Below are positions 7,700-24,630 of a stretch of 64,000 nucleotides of DNA, piece after piece. The stretch comes from an uncultured Verrucomicrobiae bacterium (GTDB lineage: Bacteria; Verrucomicrobiota; Verrucomicrobiia; Opitutales; JABDGR01). Each line of letters opens with the position of its first letter. Position 1 is the stretch's first letter. Made by a program: the position numbers and the translations under genes. The stretch is from contig CAVXVB010000009.1 of the NCBI GenBank assembly GCA_963765205.1, forward strand, positions 608,001 to 672,000, given 5' to 3'. The notes under the pieces were generated by a model. It ran no database searches, was not told where the DNA came from, and worked only from the letters and a program-made list of their open reading frames with translations.

Positions 7700-9398
7700 T
7701 CATGTGGCCCATTCAAAGGGTGTGTTCGCCTCGACTTCTTCAATCGTAGTCAAGCCAAGCAGGACTTTTTTCAACCCGTCATGACGGAGCGGCTGGTAGC
7801 CGGTGCGCTTGGCCGAGGCGGTCACGGCTTCGACCGAGCCACCGCGGGAAACAAGGTCCCGAATCTCTTCGGTGGCCACGACCAACTCGTGGAAGGCAAC
7901 GCGGCCTTTGTAGCCAGTGCGGCGGCAAATGTCGCAACCTTTCCCCATATAGAATGAGACCGCCAGGCCTTCGGTCTCGGTAAAATAACGCGCCAGGGTT
8001 TCCGGCGAAGCGACGTAGCTTTCCTTGCAACGCTCGCAAATGCGTGCCGCCAGCCGCTGGCCAAGCACCGCCAATACGGAAGGCGCCACCACATGGGGTT
8101 CGACGCCGATCTCCACCAGGCGGGTGAATGCTTGCGGCGCGTTATTGGTGTGCATGGTGGCGAAGACCAGGTGGCCCGTCAGCGCCGCCTCACTGGCGAT
8201 TTTCGCCGTTTCCGCGTCCCGAATTTCGCCCACCAGGATGACGTTCTGGATCCTGCCGCAACATCGCCCGTAACAGGAGTCCGAATTTCAAGTCAATGTG
8301 CGCGTTGACTTGTGCTTGGGTCAGTCCGGGCAGTTTCAGTTCGACCGGGTCTTCAATCGTGGAGACGTTGACATCCACGGAATTTACTTCCGCCAGCGCG
8401 GCATAGAGCGTCGTCGTTTTGCCCGACCCGGTCGGCCCGGTGACAAAGATGATGCCGTTGGCGGCCTGGATTACGCGCTGGAAGGGCTTGAGGATGCTTT
8501 GGGAGATCAGCATCTTGTCCAGCGTCATAAAGTCCTTCTTCGCCGTCGAGGCCAGCACGCGGACGACGCATTTTTCCCCTTCGATCGTGGGCAGCAAGCT
8601 CACCCGAAAATCCCCCTTGCGCGCGCCCAACTGGAGGGAAAAGCGCCCGTCTTGCGGGAAGCGACTCTGGCTGATGTTCAAATCGCACATCACCTTGAGG
8701 CGGCAAATGATGGGGCGGTGCAGGATTTTCGGAAAGCGCAGGATTTCCCGCAACCGCCCGTCAATGCGGTAGCGCACGCGGGTGTCGTTCTCCTGCGGTT
8801 CGAGGTGGATGTCGCTGGCGCGCTCGCGCAGGGCGAAATAAATCAGCGAGTCCACAATGCGGATGAGCGATTTCGATTCACTCAACTTTTCCAGCTCGGC
8901 CGGGCTGAGCTGGAGTGCGACCACCTCGCCGGTGTCCTCCAACTCCTTGACGATGGATTCGATGTCCTTCTCCGAGGAATAATGGACTTCGATGGCTTCA
9001 TTTATTTCGGAAGGCAGCGAGAACATCGGGCTGATCGGCAGCCCGGTGATGCCTTCCAGCCGCTTGCGCATGGCTGTGTTGAACGGGTCCGGCGTGGCCA
9101 CGGTCAGCACGCCCTCCAGCACATACAGGGGCAGCGTTTGTGACTTGCGCACGATCTCCGCGGGGATCAGGGCGATGGCTTCCGGTGTGATGACGGTGTT
9201 GAACGGATCAATATAGGCGACGCCGATGCACTCGCTCCAGAGGCGGCAGGCGACGGTGTGGGGCAGCAGGCCGGCGCCAATGACGGCCTCCAGCAAATCC
9301 GCGGTGTTCGCCCCATGTTTTTTGACCAGGCGGCCGAGATCCTTCTCCGCCATCATCGGATGTTTTTCGCGCAGCAAATCGGCAAAGGTTTTAGCCAT
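7700..9398 (-). pseudogene. GspE/PilB-family secretion/pilus ATPase with a single +1 frameshift (real or sequencing error)
   Basis: ASDIHLEP, Walker A GPTGSGKTT and TIEDPVE. LRQDP|(DVILV)GEIRD is split by an extra T at 8244-8245. Downstream frame has ALTGHLVFATMHTN and a Cys4 motif. Length 1699 = 3n+1. Confidence 0.85.
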
Positions 9399-9435
9399 GG
9401 GAAAAGGAGGATTCGCAGCCCGGCTGTGCGCTGAG

Positions 9436-9633
9436 TTATTGATCTTTGAGCGGTTTGCGCCGGGCGCGGGATTTAAAGATGGTGCGGATTTCGCTCTGAT
9501 CCACCAATTCAAGCCCGAGCACGGAGTCCCGCCGCTCCCACTCGACTTCGCGCAGCAATTCCTTGAGCGAATACCGGGCCTCCTTGAGCGGGGTGCCGGT
9601 GGGCGCGTCAGCGGCTGGCGGTTCGGAAGACAT
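9436..9633 (-). CDS. Small hypothetical protein (65 aa) co-oriented with the receiver and GspE genes
   Basis: MSSEPP...YSLKELLREVEWERRDSVLGLELVDQSEIRTIFKSRARRK fills the operon gap. Confidence 0.6.
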   Translation of the reverse strand: MSSEPPAADAPTGTPLKEARYSLKELLREVEWERRDSVLGLELVDQSEIRTIFKSRARRKPLKDQ

Positions 9634-10213: not shown

Positions 10214-10633
10214 TTAAGCCGCCACGCAGACCTGCAATTCCTGCTGCAATTGCGCGAGCAGATTGTAAAGGGCCTCACACCGTTGGCGCCAGCGTTCCGC
10301 TCCCAGGTCGTTGTAGCGGTATTCGACATCCTCGCCCAGTTCGCACAGCGTGGGCAGGCCCAGCATGCCGAGCGAGCCGCGGGCGTGGTGCGCCAGCCGG
10401 CGCAGGGTGGCGACGTTGCCCATGTCCACGGCCAGACGCAGGCGCGGCAGGCTGGTCGCCAGCAAGTCCAGGCACAGGTGGAAGACCTGCTGCTGGGTGT
10501 CGGGGTCATCGCCGATGTATTCGACGATCTTGTCCCGCTGCATCAGCGAGTCGGGTTCGGGGGCGCTGGGCACCGTGGCGGTGTGGGTCAGCCCCTGGAG
10601 GAAGAACGAAGGCGCGTAGGCGGTGGCATTCAT
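10214..10633 (-). CDS. Hpt (histidine phosphotransfer) domain protein
   Basis: LRRLAHHARGSLGMLGLPTLCELGEDVE matches the Hpt H-box. Start trimmed to ATG 10633. Confidence 0.8.
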   Translation of the reverse strand: MNATAYAPSFFLQGLTHTATVPSAPEPDSLMQRDKIVEYIGDDPDTQQQVFHLCLDLLATSLPRLRLAVDMGNVATLRRLAHHARGSLGMLGLPTLCELGEDVEYRYNDLGAERWRQRCEALYNLLAQLQQELQVCVAA

Positions 10634-10889
10634 GGCGAGGAGAGGTTTTGAGTGTTGGTCTGACGAGACTTGGTTTTGCTTCACTGTTGCCAGTATAGAG
10701 GCAGGCCATCTCTTCAGCCATCGGGCGAACCCTGTAGCCCCGCCTGCTATGATTGTGTAGCCAGGTAGGGGTGGGATGACGTAGCCCCACCCGGAAAAGG
10801 GGGGTATTCCTCCATTTTCGCCGCGTAGAACCCATTTTACCGTCCTGGGCCATCTGCTGGGCTTCAACCCTTTGCGGCCCAGTGTCCCT

Positions 10890-11654
10890 TCAATCGCTTG
10901 CACCGTTTCGCGCTTTGGCATCCTGATTTTGTTGCTGCACATAGGGCCGGAACATTGCGAGGAAATAGTTTGAGGTGTAAACCTTCCCTGCTTCCAGGCC
11001 CGGAACATTGGCGTAGCGTTGGGCCACCGGGACAATAAGGTCTTCACCCCTATCATCGGCTTTGAGCCAAATCGCCTGGAAGTAAATCGGGACCGCGCTC
11101 AACAATCTCGCCTCATACGACCTATCGCGCACCTGATCCGACGACGCCAATTGGTGCAGGATTTGCGCGGCCGCATCCTCCCCCGTCGGTGCGCCAATGC
11201 TGACCAGGCGCGTCTGGCCGTCGTCGCCGACTGTCACCACCGCACCGCCGACGATTGTGTCGCCCGACACGAGATCGTAGGCAAATCCGCTTTTATGCGC
11301 CGTTTCCAATCCGCCCCCCTCGGCAATTTGGCCGGGATCGAGGTGGAAAATCTCGTAGGCCGGCTTAGCCACCACAATATCGGGATCAATCGTAACTCCC
11401 TGTCTGGCGCCTTCCCGCACGAACTGATCTGACATACCCGGAAAATGATACATGGCGGCCGTCACGATGGCAACGCCGTTGGGAGGTTCAGGCCCAATTC
11501 GAATTCCGGTGGGATGCTCGTTTGTCATCTCGTGGCGTGGCCAGGCCACTTCCACATCACTGGACGTCACCGATGACGTGTTTGGCGCAAGCTGCGCGCA
11601 GCCGCCGCCCGCACCAACAACCAACCCCAACAGGATAACAGGGCGTAATTTCAT
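10890..11654 (-). CDS. Hypothetical lipoprotein
   Basis: Signal peptide ending GGGC; YEARLLSAVPIYFQAIWLK segment. Confidence 0.6.
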   Translation of the reverse strand: MKLRPVILLGLVVGAGGGCAQLAPNTSSVTSSDVEVAWPRHEMTNEHPTGIRIGPEPPNGVAIVTAAMYHFPGMSDQFVREGARQGVTIDPDIVVAKPAYEIFHLDPGQIAEGGGLETAHKSGFAYDLVSGDTIVGGAVVTVGDDGQTRLVSIGAPTGEDAAAQILHQLASSDQVRDRSYEARLLSAVPIYFQAIWLKADDRGEDLIVPVAQRYANVPGLEAGKVYTSNYFLAMFRPYVQQQNQDAKARNGASD

Positions 11655-11715
11655 GGCGGAATCCAACTTGGATGCCGCCTAATAATGCTCAATAGGCCGG
11701 CGGACGCAACCAGCA

Positions 11716-14700
11716 TTACGCAATGGCCGGTTTGCGCGCAATTGTCAGCGCGACCGCCAGCAAAAAGCCGAGAACCACGAGACCAACCCAGCCCGCCCAC
11801 ACCACGGGTTTCGCCGCCGGGCCGGCGGTGAGCTTCAGCGAGAGTTCCGCGTTCGGGTTTACCAGCAGCGATTGCGTGAATTCATAGACAGTGCCGCGTC
11901 CCGGCAGCGTGGCGTGGATGGCGACGGGATGGGGGAGGGTGTCGGCTTGCTGCATCACGAGGCTGTGCGCCAGCGCGGCGAGCACGTCGTTTTCCTCAGC
12001 GGCGTTCGCGCCGAGGATTTTGCGCGCCTGCTGGTCGGTGAAACTGAGCAATTCCGCTTGGGTGAGCACCGGGTTCGCCGCCGCCTGCGCATTGGGCGCC
12101 GCGCCGCCGCCGCTCCCCCCGTTTTGGTTCACCACCAAATTGTTGGAGTTGTTGAACAAATTCACGTCGTTGGCCAGGCCGACCATCGCCTGGGTCTCGC
12201 GCAAATTCTGCCATTGCACGCGCGCGTCCTCGTTGAAGGCCGAATCCTTTTGCGAGATTTGATACGCGCTGTTAAACAGCGAGCGCGCCTCCATCTGCTG
12301 GCCCTGCTGCAAAAGTTTGTTGCCCTGCGTCAGGAAATTTTCCGCCTCGGCGTTTTGCTGGTTCAGCCGGACGTTTTCATTCGTCACATAGTCCTCGAAG
12401 TTGGCCGGATTTTTCGCGGCCACGCCGGCGCCGGGGCCGGTCTGCTGCCAGGCGCCCGCCGTCCAATGGGAAATCTTCCACGTCTCCGGCAGGTAGAGCT
12501 GCCAGGTGATGTTTTGCAGCGGCAGGTCGAAGCGCGGCCCGGCCAATTCGGCTTCCTGCCACGCGCCGCCCGCCGGAGTGGTTTGCTGGTAGAGGAATTC
12601 CACGGTGGCGGCCTGGCTGGGCAGCGGATTCGGTTCGAGCGGCAGCAGGATTTCATCCGCGCCCTGGCTGCCCACACTCGGCGAGACGCCTTTGTCGTTG
12701 ACGAACGCGAACCAGAATTTGCTGCCTTGCGGCAGAGTGACCGCCAGGTTGCGCTCGTCGCCCGGAAAGAGGCTGACTGTCGCCTCGGTGAGCAACTGCC
12801 CGTCGGGCGCGACTAGCGAGCGCAGTTGCACGGATTCCACGCGCGCCGGCAGCACCTTGGCGGCTTCGTGGCGCACGACCTCGACCGGCAGCGTGAAGGC
12901 CGCCTCGACCGTGCGGAACGTCAGGCTCGGCGCGCTCCCGTCATATTCGCGGCGCAAGGTCGTGGGGACGGATTCCCAGTCGGTCGCTTGAAGCGCAGAC
13001 GGCGTGGCGGTGACGCGGGTCTCGAGCCGGCCGCGCGAGCGTAAGTCAATATAGCCGCGCTGCAAGTCCACGCCGAGCGCTTGCAAGCCGGCGATGGCGA
13101 GCTGGTTGTCCGCGCCCGCGGGCGGCAATTCGTAAGTGGCGGCGAGCGTGAGCGCGCCAATCGAGCGGCGTTGCAGGCGCACGAGCCACTGGCCGGGCTG
13201 GCCGTCCACCGGCACGGCATCGCTGACCTGCGCGCCCGTAATATGGACGCCCATCGCGTCGGAGGGCACTTGCAGGCGCAGCTCGCGCACGCCCGCGTTG
13301 TCAATTTGGTAGGCCAGATTCGCGCGCACTTCCGTCGAGCCTTCGCGCACGGTCACGTCCTGCAACACGTCGGCCTGGATGTGCGGCGCGACTTTTTCAA
13401 TGTCGAGGGCCAGCGTCCAGTCGCTTTGCAGCAGGCGAAAGACGAGCGCACCCGGCGTGTCAATCTGCAAGTCTTTCGGGTCCACTTGCGTCAGATTATC
13501 GCGGGTGCGAATTTGCGGGCGCAAGCCCAGTTCGGGCAAGAGCACGAGCTGGCCGGTGTGTTTGTCCGCTTCCGTGATATTCAAGCGCGGCGCAATCCAG
13601 TTTTGCTGCGCGGTCAAACCCGGCGCGCTCAACTGAATGTCGAACGACAGGTTGCCGAGGGTTTTGCCCTTGAGATTCAGCGTGACAATGTGATCCGCGC
13701 CGGTGCCGGTTTCCAGCGATTGGCTCAATTGGTTGCCACTGACGGTTTCGAGTTCGAAGCCGGCCGGCACCGGAAAGCTCAACTTGAAAATGCCCGCGCG
13801 GCTCACCGTGACGTTGAGGTGCGCCGCGAGCAGCACGCGGTCTTCGCCGAGCGAAAGACGCTGGAGGGAATCCACGCGCACGTCGGGCACCACGGCCAGC
13901 GCCTCCGCCTGCAACGACGGGTCGGCCGAGCCATAAGAATAGGCGTGGCGCACCGTGTCCGTGTCTCCGCTTGGTGCGGCGGCGCGGGCAATCGCAGCGG
14001 GAAAATCATCCAGGTTCACCGTGGCGAGATTGACGGGCGTGACGATACCCAGCTCGACTTCCGTGCCGGTGGCCAGCGCCAGCAAGCCGGTGTCCGTGGT
14101 CGCGCCGTCCAGCCGGATCGGCGTGAGCGATGCAGTGTAGGGCAGCGGCTTGGTCGAAGACTGAGAATGGATGACGACCTCGAAGGCGCTCGTGCGCGGG
14201 GGATCGAAGTAGGCGTGCAGCTTGTGCTGGTCGGGGTCGAAACGCCAGGAGGCCAGGCTGGCGGCGTCCACCTGTGAGATGGTCAAATTCGCGGGCACGC
14301 TGAACACGAGTTCCTTGATTTGGCCCTGCGCCAGGCGGATGTTGAGGTCGTGGAGTCCATCCACAATTCCCGCGGCGGGTGCGTAAAGCTGCCGCCAGTC
14401 CGCGTAATACTCGGGCTTTTCCGCGCTCAAATCGCGCGCCCGGGGCGCCCAGCGCACAATCGGCGCGGCGTTCGGCGCAAAATTGGCGGTGACGCGCGGG
14501 TGCCCGTCCGCGCCGGGCACGGTGCGCAGCGCCACGGCGTTGTCGGAGCTGGCGTCGAGGTCGGCCCGCGGCAGATCGAGCGTCAGTTCATTCACCAAGC
14601 CGCCGGGCGTCGGCAGCACGACGGCGGAAGCGCCGCCCGCAAAGTCCGACGCGCGCACTTCGTAGGAGTAGGAAACCTTAAAGGTTCCGGCCTCATTGGA

Positions 14701-17700
14701 GGTCAAAATATAATTATCCGTGCCGTTCGCAGAGCCTTGCGCGAGCGTGAGGTGGTTCGTGTCGCCCGTGAAGTTAGTCAGCACCGCCGGCGCCCAGAGC
14801 AGGGTGAGCTGGTTTCCTTTTTCCGCCCGCCAGGAGAGCACGGCTTGGATGCGCGCAAAACCGTCCTGCACCGTGCCGGTCTGGTTGATGGAGATGACCA
14901 AGCCGGGCGCAGGCGGTGTTGGCGCAATCGGAACCGCCGTGGCGGCTCGGGTCGTTGGCGCGGCGCCCAGCAAGAAAAATAGCACCACTGTGGCGACGAC
15001 GCCGGCGGCGGCGGGCACGGGCGGTGGGGTGGGCGCAGCCGGTTTTCCGCGCAGGCTCAACAATGCGCGGCCGGTGGCCCACGCCAGGGCGAGGGCAAGC
15101 GCGGCGCAGAACCATTCCGGGCCCAGCGGCAGGCCCAGCAAGCCGACGAGCACCAGCAGCCAAGCGCCGGCCCGCCACAAAATTCCCCGCTCCCTAATCC
15201 AGCCCAGCAGTGCCAGAATGAGGCCAGGCGCAAGGAGCCACGCCATCGGCTCGGCCTGGTTTTCCGGCGCAGTTTTAGGCGCGGGTTTATTCGTAATGGA
15301 AAAGGACAAGGCATGGTCGGCCTCGGTCACCGGAATGGACAAATGCACCCCGTGCTCGACACCGGGTTGGTCGGTGTCATGCGCCGCTCTCACGCCGAGT
15401 TGCGCCAGCAGCAGCACCCCCGCCAGCGCGAGCACGGCCCCCAGGCCGCTCCCCACAAATTTGATCAGCCGATTCCGACCGCGCACCCAGCGCAGCAGGA
15501 GCAATCCCGCCACCGCCAGCGCCACTCCGCCGAGAAAAGCCTGCTGGTGCGTCAATTGTGGCGCCGGTGGATTCCGCCATTTCAAGAGATACGGAACTAT
15601 CGGCGGCTGCGGCGTTGCAGTATTGCCCGCAATGACTTGGGCCAGCCAGCCCAGCCCGCTCAGGCGCGTCGTTTCCGCCACTGGCGCGCCAGTGGCCGCG
15701 CTCAACTGGTGGTCGTCATCGCCCGATAAATTCCAGTCCGTCACCAGCACCGGGGCATGGAGCGTCGGCGCGACCACCGTGACATGGCTGGCGTCTTTCG
15801 CCCCGGCGGTGTATTCCAAAGCGACCAGGAGTGGGACGTTCGGGTCGCCTTTGCGCGGCAGCGGCACCAGCAGCGCCTCGCCCCCCGCGCTTTTGTCCGC
15901 CACCGGCACCACGGTTTCGCCCGCGACCGTGATGTTCCACAGCGTCGCGCCGGCGGGCATCGTGAGTTGGAGAAAATCGTGCCCCTTGCTCTTCAACAGG
16001 TAGCGCGCGGTGGTGCGCACTTCGCCGGTCGCGGAAACATGCGTGTCGAGCGCGCCGATGTCCACCACCTGGTCCACCGTGCTCCCGGCGGCCAGCGGCA
16101 GCAATTGCAGCGTCGCCTCGAAGGGCCGCGCGGCATACTGGTAGCAGGCCAGGATCGGCGCGTCGCACAACAGCCGATATTCGGCGGGGATTTCCGCCGC
16201 TTCCAGGCGCGCGAGGCCGTCCGAGATTTTCACAGGCGCAATATTGAACGGGTAGCTGCTGGCCAGCAGCAGGTGGCCCTGCTCGGTCTGCACGTCGAGC
16301 GGCTGCAGGCCGGTGAAGGGCAGCGTGTCGCCCGTGGCTTTGAACGGCAGTTCGTAGGTCGCCAGCAGCGTATAGGCACCCGACACCGCGTGGTCGAGGT
16401 GGACTTCGTAAATGTCGCCGACCTGCGTCACATTGCGCTTGTAGGGGCCGGTAAACTCGACGTTGCGGTAGCCGCCGGTGTTTTGCAGGCGCAGCACGTC
16501 CACCGGCGCGCCCGCGATATTGTAATTAATGACGGTGCTGCCGAGCGCCAATTCCTGCCCGATGGAAAAGATGTGCAGCGCGTCGGCCTGCACACTGGCG
16601 GCCAGGCGCTCGACGCGCATGGTGGCGCTCCACGGCTCCTCCCGGTAACGCAACGCCGCCTGCAAGTTCTCCAGTTTGATCGGAAACGCCGCCGTCGCGT
16701 CTTCGAGGCCGTCCAGCACGCCCGGCGTCAGGCGCAGGCTGGCGTCGCTGGTGATGCCGACGAAGCCGCGCGCGCTCTTGAAGCCGGGGTCGTTCTTGGC
16801 GTCAATATACAAAGGCGGCACCACCCAATCCGCCGCGGCCGGCGCGTTGGCGGCGGGCGTGGCGTTGCGTTCGAGGCGCAGGCGCACGACCTGGCGGCCG
16901 ATGATGGGCTGGGCGAACACCAGGCGCAATTGCGCGCGCCCCTCGCCGGTGGCAGTCACAAAATGATCGGCGATATTTTGGTTGTCCGCCTGTAATCCCG
17001 CCACGGCCCAGTCCGCCGGGACGAGCAGGCTCAGTTCGCGCAGCGGCGCTTCGCGGATGTCGAGGTTCAGTTCCGCCTCGACGTAGGTGTCCGTCTCGCC
17101 GAGGTGGTAGGCGATGATGCTGTCCACCGTGAACTCCGGCAGCACGTTGTCTGCATTCACCGAATAAGTGTAGCCGGAATCGGCGAAACGGTAGGCGAAG
17201 GCCTGCGTGGACGCTGGCGCATTGGCCGGGCGCGCGACCGGGAATTGCTCGGGCGCGATTTGCGACAGCCCGGTCGCGTTCGCCACGTCGAGCCGCACCG
17301 TGCCTTCGTTCTGCACGCGCAGCAGGCCGCCGTAGCTCGACGCGCCGACGGGTGCGAGGCGCGGGGGCTTCGCCGTGGCGGGTAGTGCGGCCAGCGGCGC
17401 TTCCAGTTGCACCACCAGCGGGTAGTCGCCCGTCTGCGGCGCGTTCAGGTCCACCGACAAACGGCGCAGGCCGGCCGTCGCGCCGGGGGCGACATTCCAT
17501 TTCAAAATCGTATTGGCCGGACCATCCACGTGGGTGACTTCGCCGTCGCCCGTGACATCCAGGTCAATATGTTCCAGTTTGCCTTGCAGCACATGGAAGA
17601 CGATCTGGTCCATCTGGCGCAGGATGCCCGGCGCCACGGTGTCCACCACCGCGCCCGTCGCGGAAAAGAAAAGTTTGCCGGCGGTTTCCGGCGGCGCTTC

Positions 17701-18234
17701 CTTCCAGCGCAGCACGACGTGCCCCGCGCCCGGCAAATTCGCCGTGATGCGGCCGTTCGCGCGCACCGCTTGCGAGGCGTCGGGCAACTCGACCTTGGCG
17801 TCGTCCGGCCAGCCTTCGAGGACGATTTGGCGGATGTTGGCCGCAACGGGCGTGAAGTCCACCGTCTTCCAGCCGTCGCCTTCTTGCACGTTGGCGCGGA
17901 AGGGCAGGTCCACCGCCAGACGGCTCCACGTCCCGGACTTGAGCACGATGTCCCCGCCCCGCACGTCGAGCCACGTCGCGAGCGCGTCCGGCACGCTCGT
18001 CGGGCTGACGGGGCCGGCGAGCAACACGCGATCCTCGCCCGTTTTGCCGGCGGGCGGCGTGGCGACCGCGTGCAGCGTGAAGCCCACCTCGCCATTCGTG
18101 TAATGGCCGGTTAATACGAAATCACTCAAAGTGATGTTGGCCGAAGGCGCGGGGCCGGCCGGCGCGCTGGCGCAACTGCACAAACCAAGCAGAGCGAGCG
18201 CGGTCAGGAATCGTTGGCGGAGGGGGGTGTTCAT
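11716..18234 (-). CDS. Giant (2172 aa) envelope protein: two duplicated multi-domain beta-rich halves around a multi-TM segment
   Basis: N-terminal signal/lipobox-like LGLCSC, about 8 repeated ~175-aa modules, central hydrophobic helices, TPR-like helices and a C-terminal TM. Confidence 0.8.
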   Translation of the reverse strand: MNTPLRQRFLTALALLGLCSCASAPAGPAPSANITLSDFVLTGHYTNGEVGFTLHAVATPPAGKTGEDRVLLAGPVSPTSVPDALATWLDVRGGDIVLKSGTWSRLAVDLPFRANVQEGDGWKTVDFTPVAANIRQIVLEGWPDDAKVELPDASQAVRANGRITANLPGAGHVVLRWKEAPPETAGKLFFSATGAVVDTVAPGILRQMDQIVFHVLQGKLEHIDLDVTGDGEVTHVDGPANTILKWNVAPGATAGLRRLSVDLNAPQTGDYPLVVQLEAPLAALPATAKPPRLAPVGASSYGGLLRVQNEGTVRLDVANATGLSQIAPEQFPVARPANAPASTQAFAYRFADSGYTYSVNADNVLPEFTVDSIIAYHLGETDTYVEAELNLDIREAPLRELSLLVPADWAVAGLQADNQNIADHFVTATGEGRAQLRLVFAQPIIGRQVVRLRLERNATPAANAPAAADWVVPPLYIDAKNDPGFKSARGFVGITSDASLRLTPGVLDGLEDATAAFPIKLENLQAALRYREEPWSATMRVERLAASVQADALHIFSIGQELALGSTVINYNIAGAPVDVLRLQNTGGYRNVEFTGPYKRNVTQVGDIYEVHLDHAVSGAYTLLATYELPFKATGDTLPFTGLQPLDVQTEQGHLLLASSYPFNIAPVKISDGLARLEAAEIPAEYRLLCDAPILACYQYAARPFEATLQLLPLAAGSTVDQVVDIGALDTHVSATGEVRTTARYLLKSKGHDFLQLTMPAGATLWNITVAGETVVPVADKSAGGEALLVPLPRKGDPNVPLLVALEYTAGAKDASHVTVVAPTLHAPVLVTDWNLSGDDDHQLSAATGAPVAETTRLSGLGWLAQVIAGNTATPQPPIVPYLLKWRNPPAPQLTHQQAFLGGVALAVAGLLLLRWVRGRNRLIKFVGSGLGAVLALAGVLLLAQLGVRAAHDTDQPGVEHGVHLSIPVTEADHALSFSITNKPAPKTAPENQAEPMAWLLAPGLILALLGWIRERGILWRAGAWLLVLVGLLGLPLGPEWFCAALALALAWATGRALLSLRGKPAAPTPPPVPAAAGVVATVVLFFLLGAAPTTRAATAVPIAPTPPAPGLVISINQTGTVQDGFARIQAVLSWRAEKGNQLTLLWAPAVLTNFTGDTNHLTLAQGSANGTDNYILTSNEAGTFKVSYSYEVRASDFAGGASAVVLPTPGGLVNELTLDLPRADLDASSDNAVALRTVPGADGHPRVTANFAPNAAPIVRWAPRARDLSAEKPEYYADWRQLYAPAAGIVDGLHDLNIRLAQGQIKELVFSVPANLTISQVDAASLASWRFDPDQHKLHAYFDPPRTSAFEVVIHSQSSTKPLPYTASLTPIRLDGATTDTGLLALATGTEVELGIVTPVNLATVNLDDFPAAIARAAAPSGDTDTVRHAYSYGSADPSLQAEALAVVPDVRVDSLQRLSLGEDRVLLAAHLNVTVSRAGIFKLSFPVPAGFELETVSGNQLSQSLETGTGADHIVTLNLKGKTLGNLSFDIQLSAPGLTAQQNWIAPRLNITEADKHTGQLVLLPELGLRPQIRTRDNLTQVDPKDLQIDTPGALVFRLLQSDWTLALDIEKVAPHIQADVLQDVTVREGSTEVRANLAYQIDNAGVRELRLQVPSDAMGVHITGAQVSDAVPVDGQPGQWLVRLQRRSIGALTLAATYELPPAGADNQLAIAGLQALGVDLQRGYIDLRSRGRLETRVTATPSALQATDWESVPTTLRREYDGSAPSLTFRTVEAAFTLPVEVVRHEAAKVLPARVESVQLRSLVAPDGQLLTEATVSLFPGDERNLAVTLPQGSKFWFAFVNDKGVSPSVGSQGADEILLPLEPNPLPSQAATVEFLYQQTTPAGGAWQEAELAGPRFDLPLQNITWQLYLPETWKISHWTAGAWQQTGPGAGVAAKNPANFEDYVTNENVRLNQQNAEAENFLTQGNKLLQQGQQMEARSLFNSAYQISQKDSAFNEDARVQWQNLRETQAMVGLANDVNLFNNSNNLVVNQNGGSGGGAAPNAQAAANPVLTQAELLSFTDQQARKILGANAAEENDVLAALAHSLVMQQADTLPHPVAIHATLPGRGTVYEFTQSLLVNPNAELSLKLTAGPAAKPVVWAGWVGLVVLGFLLAVALTIARKPAIA

Positions 18235-18268
18235 AAATGGGGTGGGGATGGGTTGGGGTGAAATGTGG

Positions 18269-18352
18269 TAACGGCGGGTCGAGGACGCCCCGTCCTACCT
18301 GGTGATGCGCCATTTGAGCGTTTTAGGTAGGGCGGGGCGTCCTCGACGCGCC
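18269..18352. repeat. GTAG-type REP doublet in inverted orientation (REPIN-like)
   Basis: GGTAGGACGGGGCGTCCTCGACCCGCC on the minus strand and GGTAGGGCGGGGCGTCCTCGACGCGCC on the plus strand. Confidence 0.8.
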
Positions 18353-18418
18353 TTCTTTTGGATAAGGCGATTCTGAAGATACAAAAAATAAATTCATAAA
18401 TTTCATGTTCGATTTTTT

Positions 18419-21400
18419 TCAATTCCCACTCAGCGCCGACGCCGTCGTCAGCGCGTCCACCAGGCCCGCTGGGCGCGGATCGTTCGGAAACGCCTCGGGC
18501 ACGCCGCGCAGCAAATCAAGCAAACCGCGCGGCGAGGCGTCGCCGGCGAACGGGCTTTGCTGGAGGTATTCCGCAAAATACCCGGCCACCGCCGCCAGAC
18601 GCAGCGACGGCGTTGCCTGGTCGAACACCGGGGGCCGGCCGTTGTAGGGAATCTTCCAGGTCAGCTCGTGGAAATTGTTGGTGCCGGGGTCGCGGTAGCG
18701 CGCGCGCGCGGTGCCGATGGGGCCGGCCCCTTGCGGGTTGAGCACCAGGTTGTAGAGCGCCGTGCCCTGCTCGGCCGCCGCCAGCTCGCCCGCGCTCACG
18801 CTGTTGTCGCGGAACTGCGCCTGCGTCAGCCGCAAATTGTTATAACCCATCAGGCGGTAGGAGACCACGCGCTCCGGGTTGAACTCGATTTGCAGCTTCA
18901 CGTCCTGCGCGGCGGGTGTCAGCGCGCCGGCCAGCTTTTGCGCGAACGCCGCGTTCACGTCCGCCGGGCCGTTCAGGAAGGCGTAGCGCCCGTCGCTCTT
19001 GCGCGTGAGGGCTTCGAGCGTGCTGTCGTCGTAGCCATCCCAGCCCACACCGTAGGCGTCGAGCGCAATGCCCGCCGCGCGGTTTTCCTCGACGATGCCG
19101 GCGAGGGCCGCCGGGTCCAGTTCGCCGAGGTTGGCCGCGCCGTCGGTCAGCAGGATGACGCGGTTTTGCGCGTGCAGGTCAAAACTCTGGCGGGCGATGG
19201 CGTAGGCGGTCTTGAGCGCCTCCTCCATGTTCGTGCCGCCGTCGGGCACCAGTGTGTCCATAATGTTGACGATTTCGCCGAAGCGTTCGGCGGGCACGCT
19301 CACCGCGCGCACCTGCGGCGTGCGGGCGAAGGTGACGAGCGAGACCGTGTCGCCCGCGCGCAGCAGCCCGCCCAGCGCGCGGACGGCCGCGCGCAACGTC
19401 GCCACCCGGTCGGCCCGCGTCATCGAGCCGGAGCCGTCGAGGAGAATTGTCAGGCGCAGCGGCGTCGCCTGGTCGCGGCCCCCCGCTGCGGTCTGGTAGG
19501 ACACGCGCAGCAAGTCGCCGCCGGACTCAATCGGGTTTTGGCCCAAATCGTAATGGAAGGCGGCGGCCTCGCCGGTGCCCGGCGCGGGGTCGCGGTAAGA
19601 AAACGCGTTGAGGAATTCCTCCGTGCGCGTCGAAGACGGGTCGGGCCACCGGCGGTTCTGCAGCGCCGCCCACGCCAGTTGGTAGGAGGCGTCGCTGACA
19701 TTGAGCGCAAACGTCGAAAAGGCATTGTCGGCGGTGAAGATCGCCGGCGGAAATTTTACGACGTTCGGTGGGCGATTAATGGGCTGGTCGGTCGAAGCAT
19801 TAGCTTGCGTCACATTTCCGTTTTGAGCGAGCAGTTGCGAAGACGATTTCTCGGCGGCATTAACCGGTGGCGGCTGGGGAACTCCCGAAGCCGACAAAGG
19901 TATGCTTATGCTGTGGGTGCCTCCCACGACAGTTATGTTGGCGGTCGGCCCGATAAAGCTGTTGTTGCCCGTCAGCGTCAGTGTGCCGGAGCCTTGCTTG
20001 ATGATGCCGCCGACCCCTGCCAGCGCAGTGGACATGGTGACGTTGTTCCCGTTCGTGTCCAAGGTATTGAGGTCGCTCGTCGGGCTGCTGTTCAACGCCG
20101 GAAGAATCCCGGCAGTCCCAAATTGCACTTCGCCGCCCGAAATGGTCGTCCCCCCCGTGTAAGTATCATTGCCATTCAAAGCGAGCGTGCCGGCGCCAGC
20201 CTTGGTATAATTGCCCACGAAGGTGATCGCGCCGCCGATGGTCGGCGGGTTGGAGTTGACGTTGACTAGCCCGCCGATGTTGCCGGAGGCCGAAAGCCCC
20301 GCTGTAAATTGCTGATCACCGCCGGAGGAAGCGACTGTCCCGCCGGTCGTCTTGTTCAAGCCCACCGTTCCGCCGAGAATCGCGCTTGCGCTGTCACTCT
20401 CCATATCATTGGCGCTGCTGCTGGTCAGGATGCCCGTGGGCCCTCCGGCAATCGTGCCGCCAGTCAATTGTACTTCGCCAATCCTGTCATTAAAGGTGCC
20501 AGTGCTAAAGTTGCCGCCTGAGACGGTCGGGTTGGAGTTGGCCAAAACGCTTCCATTCGACCCCAATTGCAATGTCCCGGAACTGACGTTCAAAACCGGC
20601 ATGGCTGCGTTCCCGCCGCCGCTGAAATTGTCTGTCCCTGCAGTAACCGGCTCGTTCGGGCTTGCACTAGTATTATGGGACAAGGACAAGCTCCCTCCTT
20701 TTAAGTTAATTGCGCCGTTGAACGCACTCTGCGCGCCTTGGGTGAAGACCAAATTCGTCGTGTCCACGATGTTGCCGGCCAAGCCGTTCGTGCTCCCCGT
20801 CAGCGTCAGCGTGCCGCCGCTGACCGTCGTCGCGCCACCATAGGTATTCGACTCAGCCAGCGTCGCGTTCGCGTTGTCGCCCAGCGCCATATTTACATTT
20901 TGGGAGCGTGAATCAACGCCGCCATCAAATGCCACGGCTCCACCAACCTCGCCGCCGGGAGGCTGTCCTGCGATAACAGAAACGCCGCCACTGGGACTAC
21001 TTTGAACCACCGTACCCGACCGGTCTGTCTGGGCCGCCACCACCGCCAAAACCGCCACCACGCCCGCCGCGTCCTCCACCGATACCACCGCCACCCGCCC
21101 CACCGGCTGCCCCCGGCCCGCCCGCCAATGCGCCACCGCCACGGCGGACACCGCTGCCCGCCGCCCCGCCTCCTCCTCCGCGCCGGCCTCCGCCGGTGCC
21201 CCCCGCGCTCGCACTTGCACCCCCAGCAAAGCCTCCGCCAAGACCGCCGCCTTGGATAACCCGAGTAGGAGATGTCGAAAGCGGGGGTGGCGGAGGAGGG
21301 GGGGAGGCGGCGGTGGTAGCGGGGCAATGGGAGAGGATTGCGCCTCCAGCGCGGGTTCAGCCGCGGCTGGAGAAGACAATTCAAAACCCGCCGGCCCATT

Positions 21401-22450
21401 GGTCGTGGTCACCAGAGTGTCCACCACGTCAGTCGGTTCTTGGGCAATCGTAGCAAGGTCGCGGGCGGGAGATTCTGCTCGTGCCATTGTTTCCGGTGCC
21501 GCCGGGGCGGTCCAGTTGGCGGGGGCATAGGGTGAGGATGCAAGCAGGGATTGGATTGGCGTTTCGCCCGTCTCAACGATGACATCCTGGGCCAAGCCAG
21601 AATATCCCGTGCCCGCTGGCGCGGCGGCAGTCGGCGAGCCATTTTGCGCCGCGTCCTTAGCCACGGAGTCCACCAATTCCTGCGCGGACATCACTTGCGA
21701 GGTGATGAGTTTGTTCGCCATCTGTTGGCCCACGGCCAGGGTTCCCCCCGAGACAAATTCGCCCGCCAAGGCCACGGCTGGCGGGATCGGGGGGGAGGTG
21801 GCCGGCGGTATTATCCCGGGAGGGGGAGAAATGGAACGGGGGCGCGAAGCGGCAGGGGTATTGACCAGGGCCAAAGCGCCTTGGACGGAAGGCTTCGCAG
21901 GAGTAGCGCTCGGGGTATTCGCCGCGCCGGCCATTTCGCCTTGGTGTCCTCCGGGCAGGGCTTTGCTCATGCCCAAGGGAGAGGTCACTGTGTAAATCAC
22001 AGGAATCAGGACGGCCAGCAAAAGCAGCGCGGCCGCCGCCGCGAGGAAGAGGTTGCGATGGGCGCGGTAAAAGGCGGGAAAGCCGCGCGCGATTTTCTTA
22101 CGGGCAGGCGCCCCTTCGACAAGCTCAGGGCGGGTGGGCGGGTCGGCGGCGAACAGCTTGGCTAGGCGCGCGGCGCGGTCGGGGCTGAGGTGCTCGGGGA
22201 TGCCTTCAATAATCGGGAGCGCGGCGGCGGTGCGCTCGTCATCAAAAGTGTTTTTGAAGGCAAGCACTGCGGTTTCGATGTGGCGGTAGTGCGCGGCCAG
22301 CTCCGGGTCGGCGGCGAGGCGCGCGCGGAGCATCTCGGCCTCGAATTCCCCCGCCTCGCCGAGGGCCAGCGCGGCGAGGCGCGCCTCCAACTCCTCGCGC
22401 GGGCTGGGCGCGGAGGGCGGAAAACCATCGTTGGGTGGCAGCGGGTTCAT
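18419..22450 (-). CDS. Anti-sigma-like N-terminus + TM + autotransporter-associated beta-strand (PATR) repeats + YfbK-like vWA/DUF3520 fusion
   Basis: LEARLAALALGE...LAADPEL, then TM LFLAAAAALLLLAVLIPVI. Repeats TKAGAGTLALNGNDTYTGGTTISGG and IKQGSGTLTLTGNNSF. vWA motifs FSTFALNVSDASY, EEFLNAFSY, MIDAS DGSGS and LLTDGAAN. Confidence 0.85.
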   Translation of the reverse strand: MNPLPPNDGFPPSAPSPREELEARLAALALGEAGEFEAEMLRARLAADPELAAHYRHIETAVLAFKNTFDDERTAAALPIIEGIPEHLSPDRAARLAKLFAADPPTRPELVEGAPARKKIARGFPAFYRAHRNLFLAAAAALLLLAVLIPVIYTVTSPLGMSKALPGGHQGEMAGAANTPSATPAKPSVQGALALVNTPAASRPRSISPPPGIIPPATSPPIPPAVALAGEFVSGGTLAVGQQMANKLITSQVMSAQELVDSVAKDAAQNGSPTAAAPAGTGYSGLAQDVIVETGETPIQSLLASSPYAPANWTAPAAPETMARAESPARDLATIAQEPTDVVDTLVTTTNGPAGFELSSPAAAEPALEAQSSPIAPLPPPPPPLLRHPRFRHLLLGLSKAAVLAEALLGVQVRARGAPAEAGAEEEAGRRAAVSAVAVAHWRAGRGQPVGRVAVVSVEDAAGVVAVLAVVAAQTDRSGTVVQSSPSGGVSVIAGQPPGGEVGGAVAFDGGVDSRSQNVNMALGDNANATLAESNTYGGATTVSGGTLTLTGSTNGLAGNIVDTTNLVFTQGAQSAFNGAINLKGGSLSLSHNTSASPNEPVTAGTDNFSGGGNAAMPVLNVSSGTLQLGSNGSVLANSNPTVSGGNFSTGTFNDRIGEVQLTGGTIAGGPTGILTSSSANDMESDSASAILGGTVGLNKTTGGTVASSGGDQQFTAGLSASGNIGGLVNVNSNPPTIGGAITFVGNYTKAGAGTLALNGNDTYTGGTTISGGEVQFGTAGILPALNSSPTSDLNTLDTNGNNVTMSTALAGVGGIIKQGSGTLTLTGNNSFIGPTANITVVGGTHSISIPLSASGVPQPPPVNAAEKSSSQLLAQNGNVTQANASTDQPINRPPNVVKFPPAIFTADNAFSTFALNVSDASYQLAWAALQNRRWPDPSSTRTEEFLNAFSYRDPAPGTGEAAAFHYDLGQNPIESGGDLLRVSYQTAAGGRDQATPLRLTILLDGSGSMTRADRVATLRAAVRALGGLLRAGDTVSLVTFARTPQVRAVSVPAERFGEIVNIMDTLVPDGGTNMEEALKTAYAIARQSFDLHAQNRVILLTDGAANLGELDPAALAGIVEENRAAGIALDAYGVGWDGYDDSTLEALTRKSDGRYAFLNGPADVNAAFAQKLAGALTPAAQDVKLQIEFNPERVVSYRLMGYNNLRLTQAQFRDNSVSAGELAAAEQGTALYNLVLNPQGAGPIGTARARYRDPGTNNFHELTWKIPYNGRPPVFDQATPSLRLAAVAGYFAEYLQQSPFAGDASPRGLLDLLRGVPEAFPNDPRPAGLVDALTTASALSGN

Positions 22451-22467
22451 AGGGTTGTGAGTGTTAA

Positions 22468-22492
22468 GACGCGCGGGGCGGAAAAAAATTAG
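22468..22492 (-). promoter_or_regulatory. Putative ECF-sigma promoter before the vWA fusion gene
   Basis: Minus strand CTAA-N17-CGTC(TTAAC), the same motif and spacing as upstream of the sigma gene. Confidence 0.65.
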
Positions 22493-22538
22493 AGGGAAAA
22501 ATCGCAGGAAGGATTGGAGGAGTCGGTGGGCGGATTCT

Positions 22539-23144
22539 TCAACGCAGACCGGCGCGGGTGATTTCAGTGGCGAGGCTTTTTAAGGAATGGTGGAGGATAT
22601 AGCCGACGTGGCCAACCGTCAGCCCGGTGCGGGTGGCGATTTCCTTGTAGGACAATTCCTCATAAAATTTAAGGCGTACGACTTCGCCGGCGCGGGGGTC
22701 GAGACGGCGCAGGCGGTCGAAGACCAGACGGGCGAGGCCGGCGGCTTCGAGGCGCTCGACCTCGGCGTCGGGCAGCGGCGCGGGGTCGGCGAAGGCGGGA
22801 TTCTTGTCCGTCCGCAGGCGCGGGTCGCCGTCGTTGGCCGGGTCATGGGCGTCGAAGGAAATGGTTTTGCCGGCGGCGCGGAGGGTGGTGATGGCGAGGT
22901 TGTGAACGGTGCGGTAGAGCCAGGCGGAGGGGTCGCGCACTTCACCGGAATGCAGGCGCGGATGCAGGCGCAGAAAGGCTTCCTGCACACAGTCTTGCGC
23001 GGAGTCGCTGTGGCGGGTCAGGCGTATGGCGTAGGCGAGCAGGGGAGTCTCCAAGTCGCGAAAAAGCTCCTCCAGCCGGCGCGGGGGCGCGGGTTGAGCA
23101 ATGTCTCCCTTGGGTGGGGGGCAAATCTCCATGCGGGGTGGCAT
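22539..23144 (-). CDS. ECF-type sigma-70 factor
   Basis: Region 2 SAQDCVQEAFLRL...AWLYRTVHNLA and region 4 LSYKEIATRTGLTVGHVGYILHHSLK. Confidence 0.92.
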   Translation of the reverse strand: MPPRMEICPPPKGDIAQPAPPRRLEELFRDLETPLLAYAIRLTRHSDSAQDCVQEAFLRLHPRLHSGEVRDPSAWLYRTVHNLAITTLRAAGKTISFDAHDPANDGDPRLRTDKNPAFADPAPLPDAEVERLEAAGLARLVFDRLRRLDPRAGEVVRLKFYEELSYKEIATRTGLTVGHVGYILHHSLKSLATEITRAGLR

Positions 23145-23198
23145 CAAGGCCGGCGGCCCTTGCCAGGGACCGAGCGGGGATGGGTGCTTGGGGGTAAT

Positions 23199-23223
23199 GA
23201 CGGGGGCGGGGTGGGTTTCTTAG
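23199..23223 (-). promoter_or_regulatory. Putative autoregulatory ECF promoter of the sigma gene
   Basis: Minus strand CTAA(G)...CGTC(ATTAC), with 17 nt between CTAA and CGTC. Confidence 0.65.
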
Positions 23224-23242
23224 AAAATAAAGTAAAAGATTT

Positions 23243-24511
23243 TCAGGGGCTGGCGGAGGCGGGCGAGCTGAGCAGTCGTGGATCCATGCTGGAGGACGTG
23301 AGGAACACCAATTGCGAGAAGTAGAGGCGCACGGGGTAGAAGTCGGGCGCCCAGGTTTGGTGGATGGTGCGTTTTTGGCCGTCGGCGGAGATGCTCAACT
23401 CGGCGGTGCTCGGGTAGGGGGTGGACGACGCGGGCGGCTCGGCGGCGGTGAAAAATTTGTTGTCGGTTAGAAGTTTGCGCAACGCGACGATGAGTTCCGC
23501 ACTGAGTTGGAAATCGCGCTCGACGGACACGGTGCGTTTGAGAACAATGCGGGCCAGCCCGGCGCGGTCCAGAGTCACCGTGGCCTCGTCGTAAGCGGCG
23601 TGCGAACCCGGGTTTTCGTGATAGATGACTTCCGGGCAATTCGGGTCGGCGGCGGGCAGGGCGGGCGGCGGCTGGCCGGACAGGATGGCGGCCTGCGCTT
23701 CGAGGCGTGGGTGGTTGGCGGCGAACCATTTTTGCGCGTCGGCGAGGGTTTGCTGGTTTTTGACGGATGATTTGTCAAAGAAATATGAGGCGAGGTCGCG
23801 CAGGTCGGTGCTGGCGTCGCCTTGGCCGAGATTTTTTTCGAGAGCCAGCGCGGCGCGCGGGTCGCCACTGACGGCGAGCACGTGCGCCCAGAATTTGCGG
23901 TCGTCTGCGTTTTTCGCCTGCCGATACCAATCAAGCACCCGGGACACCGACCAGGGGCGGGAGAAACCGGCGAGTTTTTCCGTTTCATCGGCGGTCAGGC
24001 CGATCATGTCGCGCAAGTCCGCTTCGCCGAGACTTATATAACCATCGCCCAAATCGTAGAGTTGCTGGACGATGGGCGGTGGGTTGACCCGGTTGTATTG
24101 GGTAATCTGCACCGGGACGCCCACGTGGTGCGCGACAAGCACGCATTGCCGCATGGGAAAAGCCTCTTGCGTGGGCGGCAGCGCGGTGAGGATTTGCCGT
24201 AGCGCCGCGATTTTATCGACGTTGAGTTCGCCGGGGCTGGGGTGCTTGTTCACACGGGCGGCGTCATGGGTATCGCGCACGGTTTCGACCGAGCCGGTGC
24301 GGAGGTCAATGATCATGCGCCAGCCGATCTGTAGGTCATTGTTGGGAAACCATACGCAACGGATTTCGTCCGGCCTGCAATCCGCCAGGAAGAAGCGGAA
24401 ATACATTTCCATGGCGTAGTCCTGTTGGTAGATGGCGACGTTCTGCGCCGCCAGCGGCAAGGCGGAAGCCGCCAGCAGCAGTCCCAGCCAAAATACGCGA
24501 AATATTTTCAT
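23243..24511 (-). CDS. Secreted hypothetical protein
   Basis: Signal peptide MKIFRVFWLGLLLAASALPLAA; long ORF with host-like codon use. Confidence 0.65.
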   Translation of the reverse strand: MKIFRVFWLGLLLAASALPLAAQNVAIYQQDYAMEMYFRFFLADCRPDEIRCVWFPNNDLQIGWRMIIDLRTGSVETVRDTHDAARVNKHPSPGELNVDKIAALRQILTALPPTQEAFPMRQCVLVAHHVGVPVQITQYNRVNPPPIVQQLYDLGDGYISLGEADLRDMIGLTADETEKLAGFSRPWSVSRVLDWYRQAKNADDRKFWAHVLAVSGDPRAALALEKNLGQGDASTDLRDLASYFFDKSSVKNQQTLADAQKWFAANHPRLEAQAAILSGQPPPALPAADPNCPEVIYHENPGSHAAYDEATVTLDRAGLARIVLKRTVSVERDFQLSAELIVALRKLLTDNKFFTAAEPPASSTPYPSTAELSISADGQKRTIHQTWAPDFYPVRLYFSQLVFLTSSSMDPRLLSSPASASP

Positions 24512-24630
24512 CAGAATCGGCGGCGGGGAATCTTGCTTCCCACATAAACCCCGCTTACCGCCCAGTGTGGCGTGGAAAATGCAGCGCGCCAAGGGGATTT
24601 CCCGGCGCGGCTATGGCGGGCGGATTCTTT

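Follow-up and report, generated by a model that had tools for sequence, protein, structure and literature searches.

A stretch of 64,000 nucleotides from an uncultured Verrucomicrobiae bacterium (contig CAVXVB010000009.1, positions 608,001 to 672,000; hereafter the window) carries on its minus strand three co-oriented genes, which encode a sigma factor of the extracytoplasmic function (ECF) type, a 1343-aa protein joining an anti-sigma-like N-terminus to a head of von Willebrand factor A (vWA) type, and a 2172-aa giant protein. A first, sequence-only reading of this DNA had described the three genes, all of which are found here at the same positions and on the same strand (Table 1), and had suggested that they form a trans-envelope system in which the anti-sigma factor is also a sensor or adhesin and the giant its partner, an architecture for which it knew no characterised parallel.

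Table 1. Features of the three-gene locus, in window coordinates
Feature	Position	Strand	Basis or remark
Predicted ECF promoter of the operon	23199..23224	-	-35 TCTAAGAAA; CTAA to -10 CGTC 17 nt
ECF sigma gene	22539..23147	-	Pfam Sigma70_r2 and r4; TIGR02937; ECF226/ECF289-like
Second promoter-like site before the anti-sigma gene, a local feature	22468..22493	-	score 23.0
1343-aa anti-sigma / tether / YfbK-type vWA protein	18419..22450	-	
Anti-sigma domain on the cytoplasmic side, zf-HC2/ASD-like, here with loss of the zinc ligands	22121..22450	-	conserved alignment
Single transmembrane helix of the anti-sigma protein	21986..22051	-	hydropathy 2.95
Hypervariable low-complexity tether with PATR scraps	19784..21985	-	
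Gly-rich tract, probably out of frame	21020..21300	-	three-frame translation; Gly-rich tract in closest relative (L001)
YfbK-type head: vWF_A, VWA with MIDAS (DGSGS at 19438-19424), YfbK_C	18419..19783	-	Pfam
Inverted repeat between anti-sigma and giant genes	18278..18347	-	23-nt arms
2172-aa giant inner-membrane protein (predicted): N-terminal signal peptide, two duplicated periplasmic halves	11716..18234	-	
N-half: row of beta-sandwich modules with the fold of Ribophorin I / M1-aminopeptidase N-domains	15715..18153	-	model pLDDT 87.1
Central bundle, some six membrane helices; final helix signal-peptide-like, then AxA site	14935..15540	-	averaged hydropathy, charges
C-half: same sandwich modules plus helical insert	11830..14907	-	model pLDDT 84.7
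TPR-like helical insert with near-invariant NEDARVQ motif (12234-12214), candidate vWA contact	11938..12399	-	invariant columns; weak TPR matches
C-terminal membrane anchor	11737..11805	-	

The linked unit and its predicted promoter

A scan of species genomes gave at least 636 matching stretches, from which the best 79 loci were taken; because the best-scoring loci were kept, this set is biased to close relatives. The vWA gene lies upstream of the giant in 64 of the 79, and 14 of the remaining 15 stop at a contig edge; the sigma gene is present in 52 of the 64 vWA-giant loci, the other 12 ending inside the vWA gene. An even draw of 151 Verrucomicrobiota genomes, with the source genome counted among the giant-positive ones, contained 12 strong giant matches; the vWA gene was directly upstream in 12 of 12 (one with a 2.8-kb gap), and the sigma gene was present in all 11 giant loci with enough DNA. 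The neighbourhood comparison that the sequence-only reading had put forward as a check came out in its favor for Verrucomicrobiota, and the three genes are a strictly linked unit kept together across Verrucomicrobiota, which occurs also in the cultured species Chthoniobacter flavus (L023). These linkage figures, like the tree figures given below, are descriptions and not tests, since kin are not independent. When a fourth conserved gene was sought, no further family was common to more than 8 loci.

The vWA gene is more widespread than the unit. YfbK_C was found in 37 of the 151 genomes of the even draw, and when 20 two-gene YfbK loci from the 34 high-scoring YfbK_C matches were fetched, a sigma gene stood upstream in 18 of the 20 and no giant occurred in the flanks of any. 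In one locus (L084:3138-15394) a further ECF / zf-HC2-YfbK pair of two genes comes immediately after the triad, and another (L094:5866-10619) has a 903-aa open reading frame (ORF) that matches both the sigma and the vWA profiles, beside another sigma and a short anti-sigma-vWA gene. Seven loci (L012, L022, L031, L043, L050, L075 and L077) bear Bifidobacterium/Bifidobacteriaceae or Chitinophaga titles on genes of Verrucomicrobiota type and are probably mislabelled bins.

The sigma factor has Pfam regions 2 and 4, no region 3, a length of about 200 aa and a TIGR02937 match above cut-off, so its assignment to the ECF class holds. Judging by its relatives, translation more likely begins at ATG 23132, and the protein is 44-81% identical to 47 linked sigmas. 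The claim that no such architecture is known survives only in part. The catalogued group ECF226 (Casas-Pastor et al. 2021, PMC7826278) is described with a putative anti-sigma at +1 that has one transmembrane helix, DUF3520 and a von Willebrand domain, and is distributed in Acidobacteria, Planctomycetes and Verrucomicrobia; our protein shares this layout, and its closest relatives are Opitutales/Verrucomicrobiota. The entry differs in recording neither genomic context nor promoter as conserved beyond the anti-sigma, while both the giant and a promoter are conserved here, which extends the group description without excluding the group; the likeness is one of description. ECF289 has a like anti-sigma layout, predicted autoregulation and the promoter CCCAAGGA / CGTCTxA, which resembles the motif of the triad, but it is listed as 100% Proteobacteria and with no giant partner recorded, and the -35 element of the triad is mostly CTAAGAA, followed by TGTC or CGTC, with only 4 of 56 sites reading CCAA. 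For both groups, which are untested types, the same catalogue raises the question whether the vWA proteins function as anti-sigma factors (PMC7826278). The sigma/anti-sigma-vWA pair is thus already catalogued, and the giant partner is absent from the ECF226 and ECF289 catalogue entries. A literature search, with subscription papers outside its scope, returned no study of the three-gene unit and, for ECF226 and ECF289, only the classification paper.

At 56 of 61 loci the sigma gene is preceded by a two-block motif, CTAAGAAA followed at fixed spacing by GTC, where shuffling gave a mean of 1.6 and at most 5; two of the 56 sites were poor picks. The predicted operon promoter is the top site in its genome, with a score of 32.4. 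The second site before the anti-sigma gene recurs only in L001 and L004 (2 of 52 loci), and in 63 of 64 loci no separate promoter precedes the giant. Genome-wide, 17 sites reach a score of 14 and 7 of them a score of 18, against 4-16 and 0-3, respectively, for five column-shuffled controls; an ORF with a signal peptide follows 7 of the top 17 sites, against 0-2 for 12 column-shuffled matrices. The predicted regulon is thus small. It includes a DUF4139 gene, whose orthologues have a site scoring at least 19 in 7 of 18 upstream regions, or 5 of 16 when the two discovery cases are removed; the other predicted targets are scattered and patchy among genomes. Elsewhere in this genome (G000:C8:155000-162300, L121) tandem paralogous secreted proteins of no known family occur, two of which have the promoter motif and the first of which is apparently frameshifted.

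The gap between the anti-sigma and giant genes holds an inverted repeat, for which a fold of -62.8 kcal/mol was computed without a shuffle control; a few similar copies lie elsewhere in the genome (BLAST matches on contigs C9 and C8). The giant gene is followed by a 258-aa lipoprotein-like orphan (10890-11666, -) and an Hpt-domain ORF (10214-11056, -), and a 449-aa ORF without a Pfam match lies upstream of the unit (23243-24592, -). As the orphan has no relative among the loci and the 449-aa ORF has one only in L001 (56%), these two neighbors are placed outside the unit.

The putative anti-sigma protein: domain, head and tether

The anti-sigma-type N-terminus with a single membrane helix, as first proposed, is borne out by alignment. 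The N-terminus of the 1343-aa protein itself has no Pfam match, but weak zf-HC2 matches (E<=0.1) appear in 27 of 40 aligned N-termini of its relatives, and the HxxxCxxC motif that it lacks is kept in distant relatives such as L085 and L088. A solved-structure search with the anti-sigma profile found no significant anti-sigma match (RsiW, E 0.37). One hydrophobic helix lies near residues 134-155. The YfbK-type C-terminus is intact, with vWF_A at residues 905-981, VWA at 1000-1158 and YfbK_C (DUF3520) at 1176-1238. The ligands of its metal ion-dependent adhesion site (MIDAS), DGSGS at 1005, Thr 1073 and Asp 1103, make it a MIDAS-type vWA and are invariant in the 58-row alignment, DxSxS being kept in 58 of 58 relatives. 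The best solved relative of the head is ITIH4 (E 6e-16), with ITIH1 also among the best. In a quick tree, 29 linked heads and 22 heads of two-gene YfbK loci each fall on one side of a branch with 100% support in the SH-like approximate likelihood-ratio test (SH-aLRT), a branch at which, as the tool warned, long branches meet.

Between membrane helix and head lies the tether, whose length ranges from 251 to 1345 aa in 39 relatives. It had been called a Pro-rich low-complexity linker with autotransporter-associated repeats; the low complexity stands, and the composition is rich in Gly, Ala, Pro, Ser and Thr rather than simply in Pro. The repeats are present as three Pfam PATR matches (the best at residues 749-776), but as short scraps, and a Pfam scan of 40 tethers left 26 without any match and found PATR scraps in 9 (5 above cut-off). 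Pieces of secretin, TPR, Wzz, Poly_export, SLBB or P-domain type occur in one or two of the 40 tethers each, and a motif that we take to be secretin-like occurs in 9 of 58. Five tethers, chosen for having envelope-protein pieces, were compared with their own genomes as the only donors: one is 69% identical over 375 residues to two secretins, others reach 62% with an exporter of Wza type, 61% with a Wzc-like protein and 53% with another exporter, and the fifth reaches 34-35% only. The scraps in the window show up to 78-85% DNA identity to repeats of the genome's own giant repeat proteins, 3703- and 3289-aa ORFs at G000:C9:5800-26500 and G000:C7:181000-199000, and the window tether shares one 48-bp match with the orthologous tether of L001. 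Since these pieces match envelope and repeat proteins of the same genome, the tether appears to gain envelope-protein pieces repeatedly. Such gain may be neutral accretion, because the comparison covered own-genome donors only and because the secretin N-terminal piece of the L023 tether is also present in a 1607-aa multi-pass membrane protein (L112:3721-8544, -). That protein was considered as a relative of the giant because of its similar layout, but it has no match to the profile of the giant's C-half.

About 90 residues of the 1343-aa ORF (roughly 385-475) are probably a shadow frame between compensating frameshifts: an alternative frame reads there as a Gly/Ala run, and the closest relative, L001, has a Gly-rich tract at the matching place. 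Public contigs, from 4 of 6 runs, leave 21017-21314 uncovered, so the wrong frame could be an assembly error or real compensated frameshifts. A second hydrophobic stretch (452-475) is probably an artefact, as it lies inside this tract. Other apparent frameshifts in the assembly affect two predicted target genes and the ATPase gene of a type II secretion system or pilus (window 7700-9512, -), where near 8233 the reading goes on in another frame.

The giant protein

The giant matches nothing in Pfam or NCBIfam, and its family comprises 1,400 clusters at E<=1e-30, fragments included. It is duplicated, as was first noticed, with residues 55-836 aligning to 1130-1913, some 1080 residues further on (hhalign probability as high as 98.9%); this duplication is missed by BLASTP and detected by profiles. 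From averaged hydropathy and charges, the chain is predicted to have a signal peptide, some six helices in its centre and an anchor at the C-terminus, and on these grounds both halves are placed outside the cytoplasm. A periplasmic location also suits the LysM inserts that some relatives carry. Both large proteins look inner-membrane anchored in these predictions.

The predicted models, which are locally confident for each half (predicted template-modelling scores, pTM, 0.47 and 0.48), contain about ten beta-sandwich modules, with the helical insert in the last. The modules of the N-half match oligosaccharyltransferase (OST) subunits with Z 13.5, for a subunit of the OST-A complex, and 12.8, at a root-mean-square deviation (rmsd) near 22 A across two domains and with 7-10% identity, in a fold common to many unrelated proteins; one chain, 6s7o_E, is presumably ribophorin I, the structure match naming only the OST-A complex. 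M1 aminopeptidase N-domains follow with Z 10-12.4 and rmsd 3-4 A, among them that of LTA4H (Z 12.4, rmsd 3.8 over 162 residues), then ITIH1 49-263, presumably the VIT region (Z 9.0), and GPI transamidase (Z 6.1). On the predicted model the repeated modules thus have the fold of Ribophorin I / Ost1 and of the M1 N-terminal domain (Z 10-13.5), a likeness of fold only. Among the M1 peptidases only the non-catalytic N-terminal ranges align, and the giant has some ten such modules in two halves. For the C-half, Foldseek returned OST subunits and generic Ig-like chains. The solved-structure sequence search yielded nothing for the N-half and only weak TPR matches for the C-half; the ESM Atlas gave only unnamed Verrucomicrobiota clusters, with no named match for N-half residues 335-700. 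Whole-half Foldseek TM-scores were 0.1-0.3, mostly to generic Ig-like chains including integrin alpha legs, and for this reason homology to integrins is not claimed. A truncated database label of alpha-2-macroglobulin on one relative (P0035) was set aside, since true alpha-2-macroglobulin genes match MG2/MG3 and the giant has no Pfam or NCBIfam match.

The last central helix resembles a signal peptide, and an AxA-type site, in the present giant at about residue 1097-1100, follows it in 174 of 224 relatives (strict pattern, 110). This is as frequent as for true N-terminal signals (141 and 87 of 180) and exceeds the counts after helix 2 (119 and 51 of 224) and when shuffled (142 and 84); the excess over shuffling is modest, and the automatic choice of helix at times fell on the wrong one. 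Distant paralogues of the giant modules are separate genes of about half the size; the site may therefore be the relic of a fusion or a real cleavage site. Clusters of two to three very large genes with giant modules (L080:2264-14309, L081:8933-19514, L082:1-11209) have no sigma or vWA gene in the fetched flanks and no promoter site scoring over 12 nearby.

A predicted switch and its alternatives

ECF sigma factors are generally sequestered by anti-sigma factors and released by regulated proteolysis. In the reading that we favor, and which has about equal chances of being right or wrong, the unit would be an autoregulated envelope-damage switch with the giant as the periplasmic partner of the vWA head. 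The membrane anti-sigma would hold the ECF sigma inactive while its vWA head, on the long variable tether, docks on the giant inner-membrane protein; loss of this contact, or cleavage of the tether, would free the sigma, which would then transcribe its own operon and a small set of genes for secreted proteins, such as the DUF4139 gene and, in some genomes, alpha-2-macroglobulin. From the strict linkage, the separate branch of the linked vWA heads, the co-occurring helical insert and the precedent of ITIH, we infer that head and giant touch, possibly through the NEDARVQ insert. ITIH1 matches both the vWA head and a giant module, so the two folds do occur in one chain elsewhere; ITIH1 and ITIH4 are, however, secreted animal proteins with both parts in a single chain, whereas the triad has two membrane-anchored proteins and a sigma factor. 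The insert is found in 230 of 230 full-length relatives, a count that is partly circular because roughly half of them had been retrieved by a profile that includes it; all 7 distant paralogue ORFs, which have no vWA neighbor in the fetched DNA, lack it. That the linked vWAs split from those of two-gene loci agrees with the first suggestion of the giant as a dedicated companion.

Several observations weigh against such a contact and against the proposed regulon. Co-inheritance of a single operon accounts for both the linkage and the vWA tree without any contact; one locus (L070) has 1.2 kb upstream of its giant without a vWA match; and since two-gene ECF-YfbK pairs occur without a giant, the vWA head can exist alone. 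ITIH1 stands only at rank 23 among the fold matches, and a fold in common does not establish function. Five distant loci (L083-L086 and L088) have no good match to the promoter, and across 36 genomes the exact promoter pattern is not enriched (52, against 120 for the reversed-pattern control). DUF4139 sites are also seen where the two-gene pair alone is present, and in one genome (G036) with no YfbK_C match; the site precedes 4 of 9 alpha-2-macroglobulin genes but, once the discovery cases are set aside, only 1 of 6, and the alpha-2-macroglobulin query had no match in the present genome. Because some two-gene pairs share the motif (G099, 28.8; G117, 26.6), an exclusive assignment of the targets to the triad sigma is not justified.

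The strongest competitor, somewhat unlikely in our estimation, holds that the giant is only the main output of an ordinary ECF226-type pair, a structural envelope scaffold that makes no contact with the vWA head, which would sense something else. As the last gene of a predicted autoregulated operon, without its own promoter in nearly all loci, the giant fits such a role, and so do the LysM inserts, as expected of a wall-binding scaffold, and the clusters of module paralogues that lack sigma and vWA genes in the fetched DNA. A mere output gene sits less well with the long separate branch of the triad vWAs, with the constant adjacency of giant and vWA in the even draw when other targets are scattered and patchy, and with a helical insert confined, among the giants examined, to linked ones.

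A more elaborate version of the partnership, which we consider unlikely, is a split inter-alpha-inhibitor. The giant would be cut by signal peptidase into two rods, each membrane-anchored and built of VIT/Ribophorin-I-type modules, that clamp the vWA head through its MIDAS. The tether would serve as bait, gathering decoys from secretins, capsule exporters and adhesins of the same cell, so that an enzyme directed against these would cleave the tether as well; the sigma would thereby be released and alpha-2-macroglobulin and DUF4139 proteins induced, and the unit would be a sensor of protease attack.

The OST and GPI transamidase fold matches raise the further idea of a Ribophorin-I/PIG-T-like platform for folding or modifying exported proteins, whose load the anti-sigma would monitor, and the predicted targets are indeed exported proteins. 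With no conserved catalytic partner nearby, and with OST matches of such high rmsd and low identity in so widely shared a fold, this seems quite improbable.

Still more doubtful is the notion, contained in the sequence-only reading, that the anti-sigma protein crosses the outer membrane and displays PATR and vWA at the surface as an adhesin. PATR is present here and in close relatives, the tethers are long enough for the periplasm, and vWA adhesins such as CglB are on record. The PATR scraps are nonetheless short and sparse, other tethers bear pieces of periplasmic proteins, no autotransporter barrel was matched, and the N-terminus is an anti-sigma domain with a transmembrane helix, features which do not place the protein among autotransporter adhesins; nor does either half model of the giant contain an outer-membrane barrel, so that neither of the terms adhesin and trans-envelope is supported. 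Finally, a TolA/TonB-like force transducer on a proton motor is scarcely credible: the vWA force transducers of PVC bacteria share the layout of transmembrane helix, disordered linker and vWA head (PMC12204202), but the triad has an anti-sigma-like N-terminus, no SHLS motif (SxxxH absent from 54 of 54 transmembrane helices, His present in 2), no adjacent tolQ/tolR or other motor genes, and no conserved neighbor family beyond its three genes.

What is new at this locus is the giant partner, the conserved promoter and the predicted secreted targets, the ECF226/ECF289-type pair being already known. In eukaryotes the fold of the giant's predicted modules is known from OST, GPI transamidase and ITIH; here it would be a bacterial version repeated in tandem. 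A tether that acts as bait would, if true, be a new sensing principle in bacterial signalling. Now that the pair has a conserved promoter, a set of candidate targets and a partner of its own, it becomes possible to test in a cultured species whether such vWA proteins function as anti-sigma factors.

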